A DNA stretch of 64,000 nucleotides from Escherichia phage TH12. How positions within the stretch are numbered: the stretch's first letter is position 1; the number at the start of each line of letters is the position of its first letter. Position numbers and translations under genes: made by a program. Below are positions 30,661-63,276 of the stretch, one piece after another. The DNA lies in the sequence record MT446390.1; one strand, given 5' to 3'. The notes under the pieces are model-generated. The model ran no database searches, was not told where the DNA came from, and saw nothing but the letters and a program-made list of their open reading frames with translations.

Positions 30661-30673
30661 TTTTACAAAACAG

Positions 30674-34474: not shown

Positions 34475-34503
34475 GTTTACTTCTTCCCTAGATGTGTTAC
34501 TAT
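34475..34503 (+). promoter_or_regulatory. early promoter
   Basis: GTTTAC, 17 nt, TACTAT. Confidence 0.55.
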
Positions 34504-34531
34504 GGTCCTATTAAAACATGAGGAGAATAGT

Positions 34532-34837
34532 ATGAGTCTTTATACTGAACTGAATAAAAAATCTGAAGAATCTGCTGAAACTATTTTTAAAAACGTGCAA
34601 AAGCGTATTTTAGAAAAGATGTATAACACTGCAGCTAAAGGTGAAAAATCTTGCCGGTTCCCGATGAGGTGTTCTTCTGATTTATGCGCAAATACTATTG
34701 AATGGCTGGAAAGTGAAGGTCTTACGGTAGAGAAAAACCCGGCGATTTCTATTGACAGCGAATCATATATTAGTATTTCTTGGGATAAACCACGTACGAA
34801 TGAAGGATACTACAAGTTGTTAAGTTGGAAAAATTAA
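34532..34837 (+). CDS. hypothetical protein
   Basis: Start set to ATG 34532 (MSLYTELNKKSEES...) after RBS GAGGAGAA. Confidence 0.5.
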   Translation: MSLYTELNKKSEESAETIFKNVQKRILEKMYNTAAKGEKSCRFPMRCSSDLCANTIEWLESEGLTVEKNPAISIDSESYISISWDKPRTNEGYYKLLSWKN

Positions 34838-42230: not shown

Positions 42231-42284
42231 GTTTACTTCCTCCAAGGGTTTTGATACTATACATTCATCAACTACTTGGAGGAA
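42231..42284 (+). promoter_or_regulatory. early promoter for denV embedded in a 10-bp inverted repeat that pairs the RBS
   Basis: GTTTAC at 42231-42236, TACTAT at 42255-42260; TTCCTCCAAG (42237-42246) is the exact reverse complement of CTTGGAGGAA (42275-42284). Confidence 0.6.
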
Positions 42285-42287
42285 ATT

Positions 42288-42701
42288 ATGACTCGTATCA
42301 ATTTAACACTTGTTTCTGAACTGACCGATCAACATCTTATGGCTGAGTATCGTGAATTACCACGCGTATTTAGTGCAGTCCGTAAACATGTCCAAAACGG
42401 TAAACGTGTAAAGGATTTTAAAATCTCTCCAACATTTATCTTAGGCACAGGTCACGTAACATTCTTTTACGACAAACTTGAATTTTTACGTTTACGACAA
42501 ATCGAGCTAATCGCTGAATGCTTGAAACGTGGTTTCAAAATCAAGGACACGACAGTCCAGGATATTTCCGACATCCCTGCCGAATTTCGTAATAATTATG
42601 TCCCGTCCGAAGCGTCCGTTGCGATAAGTCAAGCACGCTTAGATGAAAAAATTGCTCAACGTCCTACTTGGTACAAATACTATGGTAAATCAATTTACTA
42701 A
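42288..42701 (+). CDS. denV: endonuclease V, pyrimidine dimer DNA glycosylase (DenV)
   Basis: Start at [28 protein letters not shown]...; near-identical to T4 DenV. Confidence 0.95.
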
Positions 42702-42971: not shown

Positions 42972-43001
42972 GTTTACGCTTAAGTATTAATATGGTATAA
43001 T
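42972..43001 (+). promoter_or_regulatory. early promoter
   Basis: GTTTAC, 18 nt, TATAAT. Confidence 0.6.
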
Positions 43002-43032: not shown

Positions 43033-43335
43033 ATGAAAACATATCAAGAATTTATTACTGAAGCGCGAGTGAGTGCAGGTAAATTAGAAGCCGCTATAAA
43101 TAAAAAGGCCCATTCATTTCATGATTTGTCCGATAAAGACCGTAAGAAACTTGTAAGCCTTTATATTGACAAAGAGCGTATTCTCGCTCTTCCTGGCGCT
43201 AATGAAGGTAAACAGGCCAAGCCTTTGAATGCTGTCGAAAAGAAAATTGATAACTTTGCTTCTAAATTCGGTATGTCTATGGATGACCTTCAGCAAGCGG
43301 CTATCGAAGCAGCTAAAGTAATTAAAGGTAAATAA
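43033..43335 (+). CDS. ipII: internal protein II (IPII)-like, capsid-targeted
   Basis: 100 aa; N-terminus MKTYQEFITEARVSAGKLEAA...; basic. Confidence 0.7.
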   Translation: MKTYQEFITEARVSAGKLEAAINKKAHSFHDLSDKDRKKLVSLYIDKERILALPGANEGKQAKPLNAVEKKIDNFASKFGMSMDDLQQAAIEAAKVIKGK

Positions 43336-43448
43336 CAGTTTACTTTCTCCTAGAATTGTGATAGTATATTCATAATTACTTAGAGGGGTAAATACAGAAA
43401 TGGACAATTCATGCGCCACGGAATGGCCCAACCTAAAAGAGAAACTAA

Positions 43449-43988
43449 ATGAGAACATTTTTAACTGGTCCTTATCTATCCCTGATGAATGCTTTTACAC
43501 ACCATTCTGATGTTAGAGTAGAAGAAATTTGTAAGAACGGTTATGCCCCACCATTTGAAGACGTACTCAAGCAGTACTGTACACTTCGTTTAGACGGCGG
43601 CAGACAATCAGGTAAATCGACTGCAGTAACTAATTTTGCTGTTAATTGGCTGTATGACGGTGGAACAGTTATTGTTCTTTCTAATACTTCAGCCTATGCT
43701 AAAATTTCTGCTGGCAACATTAAAAAAGAATTTTCTCGTTATTCTAGCGATGATATTCGATTCCGTTTATTTACCGATTCTGTCCGTAGTTTTATTGGCA
43801 ATGAAGGTTCTAAATTCCGTGGATTAACGCTTTCTCGTATTCTGTACATAATTGACGAGCCTATTAAAGCTCCTGATATGGATAAGATTTACAATGTCCA
43901 TATTAAAACAGTCCAACACTGTTGCAAAAGCAAATATTGCATCGGCGGTAATGCTCGTCCTCAATTTTTTGTGATTGGAATGCAATGA
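43449..43988 (+). CDS. hypothetical P-loop protein
   Basis: 179 aa; Walker A-like GGRQSGKST. Confidence 0.5.
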   Translation: MRTFLTGPYLSLMNAFTHHSDVRVEEICKNGYAPPFEDVLKQYCTLRLDGGRQSGKSTAVTNFAVNWLYDGGTVIVLSNTSAYAKISAGNIKKEFSRYSSDDIRFRLFTDSVRSFIGNEGSKFRGLTLSRILYIIDEPIKAPDMDKIYNVHIKTVQHCCKSKYCIGGNARPQFFVIGMQ

Positions 43989-44293
43989 TGACCACTATTG
44001 AAGTTTTTGAATATTGTTATAACAGCCCAGTATGCAATAAAAGGGCTCTTGTAGAAAATTATGAGATTTACCATTTTAAACCTAAACGATATCGTTTGAC
44101 TAAAGGCCCGTTCGCAGGGCAGCAGGTTCTTTGTACTGCTCCTAATGCACGGTTTATGACTAGTATTCCGCATTTCAAAATGGAATTTATTGATGGGCCG
44201 TTTAAGGGATTAATCACTCAAAGTTTAATGGCGTTTAATTCTGACCCATTTTTGATTAAAGAAAAAACTTGGATAAATTTATTTTCTAATTGA
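43985..44293 (+). CDS. hypothetical protein
   Basis: 102 aa ORF, ATGA overlap with upstream gene. Confidence 0.45.
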   Translation: MMTTIEVFEYCYNSPVCNKRALVENYEIYHFKPKRYRLTKGPFAGQQVLCTAPNARFMTSIPHFKMEFIDGPFKGLITQSLMAFNSDPFLIKEKTWINLFSN

Positions 44294-44299
44294 GGTTAT

Positions 44300-44662
44300 A
44301 TGAAAGCATATCAAATTCTTGAAGGCACACACAAAGGCACTATTTATTTTGAAGACGGTACTCAAGCCCGGATTATTGTCTCTAAGACTTTTAAAGAAGA
44401 CGCTATTGTAGACCCGGAAATTTTCTACGGTTTGAATGCCCGTGAAATTGAAATTGAACATCAACCTAAAGTTAAAATTGAAGGTGGTCAACACCTGAAC
44501 GTTAATGTTCTGCGTCGTGAAACTCTGGAAGATGCAGTTAAGCATCCAGAAAAATATCCGCAGTTGACCATCCGTGTATCCGGTTATGCAGTTCGCTTTA
44601 ACTCTCTGACTCCGGAACAGCAGCGTGACGTTATCGCTCGTACCTTTACTGAGAGTCTATAA
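44300..44662 (+). CDS. autonomous glycyl radical cofactor (GrcA/YfiD-like)
   Basis: 120 aa; C-terminal about 65 aa ([60 protein letters not shown]) matches the glycyl-radical domain of E. coli GrcA/PflB including the radical Gly in RVSGYAV. Confidence 0.85.
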
Positions 44663-44886
44663 TGGCTAAATTGATTATAGAAGGGTCTGAAGATGTTTTA
44701 AAATGTTTTGCCGCCTGGTTTAGTTGCTCAGGCGAGCAATCATTCATTGAAGCATTTAGAATGGGTGATATTACTGGAAACTATCCGACAACTGATATAA
44801 TTGTACGTGGATATGGCATTAATGAGCCTATCCAATTAGTCGAATATGACCTTGCCACTGATGAGGAAATTCCTTATGTCGATTGA
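44662..44886 (+). CDS. hypothetical protein
   Basis: 74 aa ORF. Confidence 0.45.
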   Translation: MAKLIIEGSEDVLKCFAAWFSCSGEQSFIEAFRMGDITGNYPTTDIIVRGYGINEPIQLVEYDLATDEEIPYVD

Positions 44887-45142
44887 AGACATCAAAGGCT
44901 ACAAGCCGCATACCGATGATAAAATCGGTAAAGTGAACGCTATTAAAGATGCAGAAGTCCGTCTTGGATTGTTGTTTGATGCTCTGATTGAAGAAGCATA
45001 TATCTTGAAAGAAAATGAAACAGAGCAACAAACCAAAGAAGATATGGATGCAGTACAGGCTCTTAAGTATGCTAAGCAACATCTAAAAGAAGCCAGCATG
45101 TGGGCCTGTCGTGCAGTATTTCGACCTGAGGAAAAATACTAA
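44876..45142 (+). CDS. vs.4-like protein (possible Acb2 cyclic-oligonucleotide sponge family)
   Basis: Start at ATG 44876 ([21 protein letters not shown]...) with RBS GAGGA; about 88 aa; assigned by position upstream of vs.3/regB and size. Confidence 0.5.
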
Positions 45143-45441
45143 TGGCTCAAATCCTATCAGGCTTTGGAACTCATTATGAAGCATCTAGACGCATAACTGA
45201 AAGCAATCCTTTTGGCCTTGTTCCGAAGCACAAGAAAATTCAAAGCCTTGATGACTTTGAGAACCGCCTATGGGCCCTCTTTAATGAGTACAAGGCATAT
45301 CTGAAAGAAGACGCTGACGATTGTCTTGAAGAAGATGAGATTGCGTATTACGAACAACGCCTTGAACAGCTCAAGAACTTCCATCAGGTTCGTGACGAAG
45401 TATCTAAAGCAGTTAAAAAGTTAATTCCTTTCAAAGAGTAG
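45142..45441 (+). CDS. hypothetical protein (vs.3 position)
   Basis: 99 aa ORF immediately upstream of regB. Confidence 0.5.
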
Positions 45442-45491
45442 TTTACTTCTCCTCTAGTTGTGTTACTATAGACTTGTCAACTAGAGGAGAA
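45441..45491 (+). promoter_or_regulatory. early promoter for regB embedded in a 14-bp inverted repeat that pairs the RBS
   Basis: GTTTAC at 45441-45446; TTCTCCTCTAGTTG (45447-45460) is the exact reverse complement of CAACTAGAGGAGAA (45478-45491). Confidence 0.6.
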
Positions 45492-45497
45492 ATCAAA

Positions 45498-45956
45498 ATG
45501 ACTATCAATTCGGAAGTTTTTATCCGCCGTAATAAACTCCGTCGAATCTTTGAAACGGAGTTCCGCAAAATAAATGCCGGTATAAAAGATGCTGCAAAGT
45601 CTCTTGGACTACCAGGCTTTCATATCAAGTATTCTCAACATCTCTTAGATCGTGCCATCCAGAGAGAAATAGATGAGAATTACGTTTTTGAATTATTTCA
45701 TAAAGTAAAAAATCATGTTAAAGAAGTTGCAGAATTTTTATCAATGCCGGCACGTCCAGATGTTGATGAAGATTTTGTCGAAGGTGTCGAATATCGCCCA
45801 GGCCGTTTAGAAATAACTGATGGAAATCTTTGGTTAGGTCTTACAGTTTGTCGCGAAAATCCGGCATTCAAAATGAAGACTCTTCAATGTAGAATGGCTA
45901 TTATTAACAGTAAACGACTACCAGGAAAAGCTTCTAAAGCAGTGATTAAAATCTAG
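45498..45956 (+). CDS. regB: RegB site-specific endoribonuclease
   Basis: Start at MTINSEVFIRRNKLRRIFETEFRKINAG...; near-identical to T4 RegB. Confidence 0.9.
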   Translation: MTINSEVFIRRNKLRRIFETEFRKINAGIKDAAKSLGLPGFHIKYSQHLLDRAIQREIDENYVFELFHKVKNHVKEVAEFLSMPARPDVDEDFVEGVEYRPGRLEITDGNLWLGLTVCRENPAFKMKTLQCRMAIINSKRLPGKASKAVIKI

Positions 45957-48884: not shown

Positions 48885-48935
48885 GTTTACTTCTCCTTGA
48901 GATGTGTTATAGTAGTCCTTACTTACTAGAGGAGA
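48885..48935 (+). promoter_or_regulatory. early promoter with RBS-pairing inverted repeat
   Basis: GTTTAC; TTATAGT -10; TTCTCCT (48891-48897) complementary to AGGAGAA (48929-48935). Confidence 0.55.
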
Positions 48936-48940
48936 ACGTT

Positions 48941-49120
48941 ATGACACGTAAAGAAAAGATTTCTAAGTTGATGTTTTTGATTGAAGAGTACGCTAATGCG
49001 GTATCTGATTGGGAAAATGCTCATGGTTGCGAAGATGGAGACATCGACATTAACAGGGCTATGAAAAAGATGGCCGACGCTCACACCGAATTGCAAATGT
49101 ATGTTAACGAGATTATGTGA
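48941..49120 (+). CDS. small hypothetical protein
   Basis: Start at ATG 48941 (MTRKEKISKLMFLIEEY...) after RBS AGAGGAGAA. Confidence 0.45.
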   Translation: MTRKEKISKLMFLIEEYANAVSDWENAHGCEDGDIDINRAMKKMADAHTELQMYVNEIM

Positions 49121-51794: not shown

Positions 51795-52775
51795 ATGTTC
51801 AACGTTCAAATCAAAAAAGGTATCTATCGTAATAATGAAATCTCCGGTTCTTATGTTGCCACAAAGACATGGTTCCCAGCAAAGCTTAATCCTGAATGTT
51901 CCCACTTAGGTGACGGTAAAATTTTCGTTATGATTGATGGTTCTGAACGTGGAGTATGGGTCTTCAAATCAGACATCGTAATGGAAGGAGTTGAGACGAC
52001 ACCAGTTGCAGTTGTTGAAAGCACTGAAGATATGAAAACTCGTATCAACAAACGCTTTAAAGTAATGAACATGATGACGAATGGCATTATCGATGGCAAA
52101 ATTCGTTCACTCATTATTTCAGGTGCAGCTGGTATTGGTAAGACGTATTCTCTGGATAAAGCGCTTAATAATGCTAATGATAATGGTTTCATCAAATACA
52201 AAAGCATTAATGGTAAAATCTCTGGTATTGGCCTTTACGAACAACTTTGGCTCAACCGTGATGCAGACAGCGTTCTCTTAATCGACGATGTTGATGTATT
52301 CTCGGATATGGATATCTTGAACCTTCTTAAAGCAGCATTAGATACTGGTGATAAACGCAAAGTTTGCTGGAGCACTGCATCATCTTATCTTGATGATAAG
52401 GGTATCGATAAAGAATTTGAGTTTGAAGGTACTATTGTTTTCATTACAAACGTTGATATCGATAAAGAGTTAGAACGCGGTTCGAAACTTGCTCCGCACC
52501 TTCAAGCTTTAGTATCTCGTTCAGTGTATCTCGACCTTGGAGTACACTCTAATGAAGAGATTATGGTTCGAGTTGAAGATGTAATATTATCTACTGACAT
52601 GATGCAGAAACGTGGTCTGACGGATGCAGAAACGTATAAAGCATTGTCCTGGATGAAGGCTAACGTATCTCGTCTTCGCAATGTATCATTACGTACGGCT
52701 CTTTATGTAGCAGATTTTATTTCAACCGATAAAGATGGTTGGGAGGAAATCTCTGAAGTAACTTTACTGAAATAA
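51795..52775 (+). CDS. AAA+/P-loop ATPase
   Basis: Start at ATG 51795 (MFNVQIKKG...) after RBS TGGAGAA; Walker A ISGAAGIGKTYS, Walker B VLLIDDVDVF, sensor-1-like IVFITNVD. Confidence 0.6.
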   Translation: MFNVQIKKGIYRNNEISGSYVATKTWFPAKLNPECSHLGDGKIFVMIDGSERGVWVFKSDIVMEGVETTPVAVVESTEDMKTRINKRFKVMNMMTNGIIDGKIRSLIISGAAGIGKTYSLDKALNNANDNGFIKYKSINGKISGIGLYEQLWLNRDADSVLLIDDVDVFSDMDILNLLKAALDTGDKRKVCWSTASSYLDDKGIDKEFEFEGTIVFITNVDIDKELERGSKLAPHLQALVSRSVYLDLGVHSNEEIMVRVEDVILSTDMMQKRGLTDAETYKALSWMKANVSRLRNVSLRTALYVADFISTDKDGWEEISEVTLLK

Positions 52776-52907
52776 GCTTATAGGAAGTTCTGAGGTAAGC
52801 CATAAAGATGAATAATCATATGGCTTACCTCAAAGAAGGACACCAGGAACCTACTGAGGGCATAGAAATATTTAAAATAATGATGTACAAATCAAAGAGG
52901 ATATGTT

Positions 52908-63036: not shown

Positions 63037-63066
63037 GTTTACATCCTCGATAGATATGTTAAGATT
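63037..63066 (+). promoter_or_regulatory. early promoter
   Basis: GTTTAC with a weak -10 (TAAGAT) about 17 nt downstream. Confidence 0.45.
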
Positions 63067-63093
63067 AAACCATCTGCTATAGAGGAAAACAAA

Positions 63094-63276
63094 ATGACAA
63101 TTGAAGATAAAGAAATTAAGGTTGACCAGTACTATTCTGTCAACGGTAATGCAGTACAGATAACCAGAGTTTCAAGCCTGGATGTTTGGTACCGTTCAAT
63201 CAAATATCCAGAAATTGGTGAAATGCTTTGTGACCGTAGTATCTTCTGTTCAATTGCGAAGGAAATTAAGCCATGA
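63094..63276 (+). CDS. small hypothetical protein
   Basis: Start at ATG 63094 (MTIEDKEIKVDQYYS...) after RBS AGAGGAAAA. Confidence 0.4.
   Translation: MTIEDKEIKVDQYYSVNGNAVQITRVSSLDVWYRSIKYPEIGEMLCDRSIFCSIAKEIKP

Follow-up and report, generated by a model that had tools for sequence, protein, structure and literature searches.

A hairpin predicted to mask the regB ribosome site on read-through RNA, with an early promoter inside it, in Escherichia phage TH12

In a 64,000-nucleotide stretch of Escherichia phage TH12 (MT446390.1; hereafter the window), the early promoter of regB, the gene for a site-specific endoribonuclease, is interleaved with a perfect 14-bp inverted repeat whose 3′ arm covers the regB Shine-Dalgarno (SD) sequence. 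From the arrangement of the arms, their predicted folding and their conservation among related phages, we consider it likely that the resulting RNA hairpin gates regB translation according to where a transcript starts. By inactivating early mRNAs, RegB brings the early phase of T4-type infection to a close, and the amount of this enzyme needs a tight limit.

The inverted repeat and early promoter before regB

The regB coding sequence (45498-45956; 152 amino acids plus a stop codon) is annotated as such, matches the Pfam family PF10715 (REGB_T4) with E = 4e-69, and encodes a protein 78% identical to T4 RegB. The window shows 100% identity to Shigella phage Shf125875 (KM407600.1; Tevenvirinae, Mosigvirus, RB69-like), including the regB region annotated there, so that the identity assigned to this gene in an earlier sequence-only reading proved correct. 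Gene names in the window were taken from the KM407600.1 annotation (locus offset 42099) together with the list of open reading frames (ORFs), and the features of the regB locus described here all lie on the + strand.

The sequences TTCTCCTCTAGTTG (45447-45460) and CAACTAGAGGAGAA (45478-45491) are exact reverse complements of each other, and 17 nt separate the two arms; a check of the sequence thus bore out both the coordinates and the perfect complementarity claimed in the sequence-only reading. The repeat stretches imperfectly to 19 nt (45442-45460 and 45478-45496, 89%). By sequence and folding, the 5′ arm is an anti-SD sequence that makes up 14 of the 17 nt of the promoter spacer. The 3′ arm contains the SD sequence GAGGAG (45484-45489), 8 nt before the ATG at 45498, and within it the RegB target motif GGAG (45486-45489). 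The 17-nt loop (45461-45477) holds the TGT of an extended −10 (45461-45463), the −10 hexamer TACTAT (45464-45469) and the predicted transcription start, G45476. The SD under the 3′ arm and the −10 between the arms were therefore found where the earlier reading had placed them.

This repeat is not expected by chance. Perfect 14-bp inverted repeats with a loop of 3-40 nt occur twice in the window (45447/45478 and 52791/52819), compared with a mean of 0.01 and a maximum of 1 per window in 100 dinucleotide-preserving shuffles. The predicted fold of RNA 45442-45496 has a free energy of −21.6 kcal/mol, compared with −9.6 ± 2.7 kcal/mol for shuffled sequences (z = −4.4; 0 of 200 as good). A search of Rfam with the regB hairpin gave no matching family.

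The second perfect repeat, which is the sole other one in the window (52791-52804, TGAGGTAAGCCATA; 52819-52832, TATGGCTTACCTCA), sits 3′ of a 330-amino-acid ORF ending at 52775. It has GAGG in its 5′ arm, and its loop holds an ATG (52808) that starts an ORF of 40 amino acids.

The promoter itself consists of a −35 hexamer, GTTTAC (45441-45446), that fits the T4-type early −35 (TTTACW; PMC4122927), a 17-nt spacer, and the extended −10 TGT followed by TACTAT, and as a whole it fits the T4/PST early consensus TTTACW-N17-TAYWAT (PMC4122927). Both hexamers hardly vary among 25 regB cassettes of other phages, and T4 regB has an early promoter of the typical kind, shut off at 2-3 min (PMC3014915). 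We called the window promoter on the basis of the T4-type consensus and this conservation rather than of a generic sigma-70 scan, which lists the promoter of the T4 regB ortholog (10 of 12 matches plus TG). No late-promoter motif (TATAAATA) is present in 45441-45500, and no MotA box lies nearby.

The predicted start, G45476, is the seventh nucleotide past the −10 hexamer, 2 nt before the 3′ arm and 16 nt past the end of the 5′ arm. Across 18 lineages the predicted start base is A in 16 and G in 2 (the window included), and in every case it either immediately precedes the 3′ arm or coincides with its first base. We infer that regB transcription starts at about 45476, outside the 5′ arm. As the sequence-only reading had argued, RNA started at this promoter would lack the 5′ arm, since that arm is promoter spacer and the predicted start lies past it.

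Folding predictions for the two kinds of transcript differed accordingly. On read-through RNA the SD is predicted to be fully paired (probability unpaired, 0.000; paired, 1.000), whereas on RNAs starting at 45475-45477 its mean probability of being unpaired is 0.49-0.67. This agrees with the earlier proposal that read-through transcripts fold the ribosome-binding site into a stem and promoter-proximal transcripts leave it free. The predicted cost of opening positions −16 to +5 in the window is 17.4 kcal/mol on read-through RNA versus 3.0 kcal/mol on promoter-proximal RNA, and the means over 18 regB lineages are 13.1 and 3.6 kcal/mol, respectively.

Pairing across phage lineages and between cassettes

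We gathered regB loci from IMG/VR and GenBank phages, which gave about 18 lineages in phages of several enterobacterial genera. We take JS98, CC31, VR5, 44RR and phage 25 to be the appropriate lineage names; L numbers are our own labels for loci. The cassette from promoter to ATG measures 59-63 nt in most lineages. The arms vary between lineages and their complementarity is kept: the 5′ and 3′ arms are TTTTCCTCTTGACTG and CAGTTAAGAGGAGAA in T4 (with two G-U pairs), TTTCTCCTCTTTATG and CATAAAGAGGAGAAA in STML-198, TCTCCTGTAAG and CTTACAGGAGA in Merlin-like phages, ATCTCCTGTAG and CTACAGGAGAT in JS98-like phages, ATCTCCTTTTAG and CTAAAAGGAGAT in L034, CCTCCTTT and AAAGGAGG in L047, CTCCTCTTG and CAAGAGGAG in L050, and ATCCTCATTTG and CAAATGAGGAT in Serratia phage CHI14, where the SD is GAGGA, without GGAG.

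Two kinds of test were applied to this pattern. In an alignment-free test, 5′ and 3′ halves from the same cassette folded together with a mean of −19.9 kcal/mol, compared with −12.9 kcal/mol for swapped halves, and none of 100,000 permutations reached the value of the true combinations. In a covariance-model alignment of 20 cassettes, 90.5% of the cells pair, both partners have changed in 9 of the 14 pairs, and covariation scores 0.340, compared with 0.101 after shuffling (0 of 500) and 0.02-0.06 with the partners slid. The covariance-model alignment is fitted to the structure and is thereby biased, so the alignment-free test weighs more; an alignment by MAFFT was set aside because variable SD-ATG spacing misaligned the 3′ arms. 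The covariance-model search was run at a stricter threshold that kept out minus-strand hits and hits to other cassettes. In addition, the T4 stem is predicted to be far more stable on the sense strand (−22.4 kcal/mol) than on the antisense strand (−12.5 kcal/mol), owing to its two G-U pairs, which points to RNA of the sense strand and not to DNA as the molecule that folds. We conclude from these sequence comparisons that pairing of the arms is maintained in evolution by compensatory change across phage genera.

Some lineages reach a similar predicted outcome by other means. VR7/VR25 (L046, 1138-1197) have no anti-SD in the spacer, but the −10 region and the bases that follow pair with GGAGAUAAUCAUG, giving opening costs of 15.6 kcal/mol on read-through and 2.7 kcal/mol on proximal RNA. 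The Yersinia phages fHe-Yen9-01/phiR1-RT (L052, 1134-1194) likewise have no spacer anti-SD, and there the spacer and −10 are predicted to pair with the SD, the AUG and codons 2-5 (12.8 versus 3.1 kcal/mol). Masking by another 5′ arm in VR7/VR25 and in these Yersinia phages looks like an independent solution to the same problem. A split design, with an outer anti-SD/SD helix and an inner hairpin over the −10, is predicted in CC31-like phages, L051 and L054; the predicted effect is weaker in the CC31-like phages and L054.

Cassettes composed of an AT-rich region, a sigma-70-like promoter, a stem-loop, an SD and an ATG are known in T4-like phages as PeSL (promoter-early stem-loop) cassettes (Arbiol 2010, PMC2839356; Comeau 2014, PMC4122927). 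The regB element is one case of a recurring cassette design, to which the sequence-only reading does not refer, any more than it does to the T4 precedents for the mechanism. The window contains 22 early-promoter cassettes; only about 5 of them mask the SD, and most have opening costs of ~2-4 kcal/mol in both contexts. A covariance model built from the regB cassettes also matched window cassettes starting at 63037, 53198, 48885, 42231 and 34475. The T4 denV cassette (L062; 65394-65334 of its record) is identical to the regB cassette of L043 (1136-1194; JS98/VR5-like) at 57 of 61 positions, whereas the regB cassettes of T4 and of this VR5-like locus are identical at just 40 of 60, which suggests that whole cassettes move between genes.

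Several other cassettes can be described alongside that of regB. The denV cassette of the window (42231-42290) has a regB-like design, in which TTCCTCCAAG (42237-42246), just past the −35, is the perfect complement of CTTGGAGGAA (42275-42284) over the denV SD; its predicted opening energy is 13.8 kcal/mol on read-through and 2.7 kcal/mol on proximal RNA. The T4 denV SD (KJ477684.1, 65394-65336) is predicted to be masked by different arms, ATCTCCTGTAG and CTACAGGAGA (11.0 versus 3.8 kcal/mol). An anti-SD in the spacer is also present at 48885-48943, 63037-63096 and 34475-34534, before ORFs of 59, 60 and 101 amino acids, with read-through and proximal opening energies of 12.6 and 4.5, 8.1 and 1.8, and 13.1 and 4.3 kcal/mol, respectively. 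About 9 of the 22 cassettes instead carry a 7-10 bp inverted repeat that flanks the −10 and is clear of the SD (for example, ATAGGACT...AGTCCTAT), a stem-loop of the PeSL type without a U-tract. Repeats flanking the −10 are found at the cassettes at 30673, 31028, 31408, 35344, 37913, 39205, 49334 and 53198, and their arms vary and stay complementary. In close Mosigvirus relatives (L019-L021 included; 68% query coverage) vs.3 is replaced by a different gene upstream of regB, and similarity breaks right at the 5′ edge of the cassette, between agta and GTTTAC.

A probable transcript-origin gate and competing explanations

Upstream of regB, the genes vs.8, vs.7, vs.6, vs.5, vs.4 (Acb2-like) and vs.3 (43449-45441; annotation and ORF list) are co-oriented and tightly packed or overlapping. 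The vs.3 stop codon, TAG (45439-45441), lies 5 nt before the 5′ arm, and the −35 hexamer begins with its G. By pattern scan, the nearest upstream T4-type early promoter is GTTTAC-N18-TAGTAT at 43338-43367, and further ones begin at 42972 and 42231. No convincing + strand terminator was found in 43338-45441, where the sole candidate is a weak 5-bp stem at 43944. The genes vs.8-vs.3 are presumably the source of read-through RNA into regB.

Two features of this upstream region may be mentioned here. The early promoter after ipII (43338-43402, GTTTACTTTCTCCTAGAATTGTGATAGTAT) can form a long hairpin, in which GAGGGGTAAAT is the partner of the −35 hexamer plus TTTCTCC and, around the −10, TCATAATTAC is the partner of TAGAATTGTGA; the first ATG 3′ of this promoter opens an ORF of just 13 codons, well before vs.8 (43449). 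The vs.4 product (44846-45142) matches the Pfam Acb2/Tad1 hairpin domain (E = 5.7e-18), which represents a family of anti-CBASS/anti-Thoeris sponges. Its gene is two genes upstream of regB here and directly upstream of the regB cassette in several other lineages.

We propose that polymerases that start from the promoters at 43338, 42972 and 42231 (in T4, from the middle promoter Pvs.7 as well) would cross vs.8-vs.3 into regB, and that the transcribed spacer (45447-45460) would pair with the SD region (45478-45491) as soon as the latter is made, forming a 14-bp stem that would block 30S binding. RNA from the regB early promoter, starting at about G45476 without the 5′ arm, would have an open ribosome site and would be both translated and self-cleavable. 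RegB acts on an 11-nt GGAG site that has to be single-stranded, and secondary structure inhibits it (PMC1702504); the GGAG of read-through RNA should therefore be shielded from cleavage by the stem as well. The net result would be that synthesis of RegB, which is toxic when its gene is cloned (PMC6893735) and cleaves the SD of its own mRNA (PMC3014915), is confined to the brief period in which its own early promoter is active, with long polycistronic RNAs being neither a late source of RegB nor cut at the regB SD. In T4, the gate would prevent synthesis of a toxic nuclease in the middle period, because Pvs.7 is located ~1.6 kb upstream (PMC2988021, Table 1) and the sequence from there to regB has no predicted terminator.

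A link between the hairpin and RegB self-cleavage is reasonable to propose for the window. The sequence GGAGAAAUCAA agrees with the RegB consensus GGAGRAYARAA (PMC1702504) at 8 of 11 positions, is A-rich, and is predicted to be open on proximal RNA only. Cleavage of the RB69 regB SD is reported second-hand in a passage of PMC3014915. More generally, read-through RNA, translational repression and protection from RegB are inferred here.

Several considerations weigh against such a gate. Start site, read-through RNA and repression are predictions throughout, and the generic sigma-70 scan did not list the regB promoter of the window, which agrees with TTGACA/TATAAT at 8 of 12 positions. A search of 43300-45441 gave no MotA-box middle promoter, so that the argument that the gate prevents middle-period RegB rests on T4. 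Some lineages show only a small predicted effect (Merlin, 5.4 versus 3.2 kcal/mol; CC31-like, 6.6 versus 3.8; L054, 8.9 versus 6.6; L047, 9.4 versus 6.0). The covariation events are not independent and did not all arise at regB, because whole cassettes appear to move between genes. The lowest pairs of the stem might be opened by a ribosome that terminates on vs.3, whose stop lies 5 nt upstream. Finally, the authors who described PeSL cassettes took their stem-loops for terminators (PMC2839356).

This last point leads to the possibility that the regB hairpin is a generic PeSL stem-loop that attenuates or terminates upstream transcription, or serves as a recombination site, or both, with its overlap of the SD being incidental. 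PeSL stem-loops lie “between the −35 and −10 boxes or overlapping the −10”, and one from RB49 terminates as well as rrnB T1 (PMC2839356, PMC4122927). The roughly 9 window cassettes with stem-loops clear of the SD, the near-identity of the T4 denV and VR5 regB cassettes, and the change of upstream gene up to the cassette edge in Mosigvirus relatives all fit such an explanation. However, the regB stem is followed by AAUCAAAAUG, with no U-tract or T-run, and the terminator scan of the window lists nothing there; for lack of a T-run we set aside the reading as a terminator. Termination would also starve vs.1, vs and tk.4 of read-through RNA, since a scan of the window for cassettes found no promoter cassette for these downstream genes before 48885. 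Moreover, the SD is masked at regB in nearly every lineage, even where the 5′ arm is shifted, as opposed to about 5 of the 22 cassettes in the window. We regard a generic stem-loop as unlikely.

Alternatively, regB could be translationally coupled to vs.3, so that polycistronic RNA would yield no RegB until a ribosome completing vs.3 opened the hairpin. The short distance from the vs.3 stop to the 5′ arm is in keeping with coupling, as is the finding that the upstream stop lies 5-11 nt from the arm in all lineages. A terminating ribosome unwinds RNA to about +11 from the P site. By this geometry it would reach at most the base of the stem and leave at least 9 bp, and the gap is 8-11 nt in T4 and JS98. 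In addition, the upstream gene varies (vs.3, Acb2/vs.4 or others) and the hairpin stays, which makes coupling very doubtful as an explanation. We give slightly less credence to a role in RNA stability, in which the hairpin would be a barrier to 3′ exonucleases, or would shield AU-rich promoter sequence from RNase E, and so protect the vs.8-vs.3 message. A stable stem at the end of an operon would suit that role, and many other cassettes have stem-loops unlinked to an SD, but it does not account for a 3′ arm that always coincides with the regB ribosome site and a 5′ arm that is always upstream of the predicted start. The repeat might, lastly, act as DNA, as an operator for a dimeric protein or as a cruciform, and control the early promoter, for example its shut-off. 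It does bracket the −10 hexamer, and the mechanism of early-promoter shut-off is not completely understood (PMC3014915). The arms nevertheless change freely with complementarity kept, which is the opposite of what is expected for a protein operator, and the G-U pairs of T4 would turn into A-C mismatches on the opposite strand and in DNA. On the grounds of covariation and of these G-U pairs we rejected the operator and the cruciform, and a DNA element has hardly any probability left.

Relation to known systems and meaning

Hairpins that sequester a ribosome-binding site and have a promoter embedded in them are known for the T4 genes e, soc, 49, I-TevI/II/III and segB and for Aeh1 mobE (PMC3014915, PMC2988022). 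In this class, a stable helix takes in the SD, the AUG or both, its 5′ strand lies upstream of a promoter that is inside the structure or adjoins it, and the genes have a polycistronic setting; long RNAs started upstream are untranslatable and promoter-proximal RNAs are translated (PMC3014915, PMC2988022), and gene e is repressed 100-fold by such an architecture (PMC3014915). The regB element resembles this class in having a stable helix over the SD (14 bp, −21.6 kcal/mol, z −4.4) and in having a promoter placed so that its transcripts omit the 5′ strand of the helix (from the geometry, and from the documented early promoter of T4 regB; PMC3014915). Transcripts from upstream may reach it as well, to judge from the packed genes and upstream early promoters. 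The element differs in that its promoter is of the early sigma-70 type and regB is an early gene, whereas the promoters of the class are late or middle and the genes “are all late genes” (PMC2988022). Furthermore, the −35/−10 spacer itself is the regB anti-SD, RegB targets the very SD that is masked, and the effect of the gate would be to limit translation to the first minutes instead of delaying it. The genes with ribosome-site hairpins named in two reviews from 2010 (PMC3014915, PMC2988022) do not include regB. Our analysis supports the view that the regB element is an early-gene version of this classic T4 device within a known type of cassette.

As for that cassette type, the regB element (45441-45500) shares with PeSL cassettes (PMC2839356, PMC4122927) the order of upstream stop, T4-type early promoter, stem-loop, SD and ATG, and also the occurrence of many cassettes in early “hyperplastic” regions with signs of exchange between genes. 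PeSL stem-loops have been taken as terminators or attenuators and as recombination substrates, whereas at regB no U-tract follows the stem and the SD itself forms the 3′ arm; unlike the stems of the usual cassettes, the stem at regB spans from the spacer to the SD and not the flanks of the −10. The 2010 paper on PeSL cassettes (PMC2839356) contains no word starting with “translation”, “ribosome” or “sequest”. In Aeromonas phages, a canonical terminator and then an early promoter precede regB, which is the classic PeSL layout. The position is the same and so, likely, is the purpose, namely no expression of regB from upstream; but the Aeromonas element, a GC-rich stem with a T-run, would block transcription, whereas the element of the enterobacterial phages would let transcription pass and block translation.

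The stem-loop before T4 regB itself has probably been seen before. An abstract by Valerie et al. from 1986 (NAR 14:8637) reportedly states that the sequences before ipIII, ipII, denV and orf61.9 can form stable stem-loops, and orf61.9 is presumably the gene later called regB. Hairpins upstream of T4 denV and T4 regB were present in our scan.

RegB is also known to regulate its own synthesis: according to PMC3014915, which draws on Sanson & Uzan and on Piesiniene 2004, the GGAG in the regB SD is conserved in T4-related phages and cleaved in vivo wherever tested, which limits RegB synthesis. Such self-regulation works in trans and needs RegB to have accumulated first, whereas the hairpin would be a control in cis, in force from the first transcript onwards, that would spare read-through RNA the cleavage. 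A control of this kind would come on top of the known self-cleavage as a second layer, and would account for long transcripts being able to pass through regB with no further nuclease made and no cut at that place.

The early-gene version of the device implies that the same architecture can shorten expression and not only delay it, the earlier T4 examples all being late genes. The regB case also suggests that some stem-loops of early cassettes, so far read as terminators or recombination sites, are translational gates. We would put forward only tentatively the wider idea that cassettes with an anti-SD in the promoter are a distinct functional class of PeSL cassettes, of which an early-gene subset (regB, denV and several small ORFs) is translated only from RNA of its own promoter. 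If this idea is correct, T-even-type phages would superimpose an “immediate-early only” programme of translation on read-through transcription, polycistronic delayed-early and middle RNAs would be immune to RegB at GGAG ribosome sites, and the regulation would travel with portable cassettes between genes and between phages.

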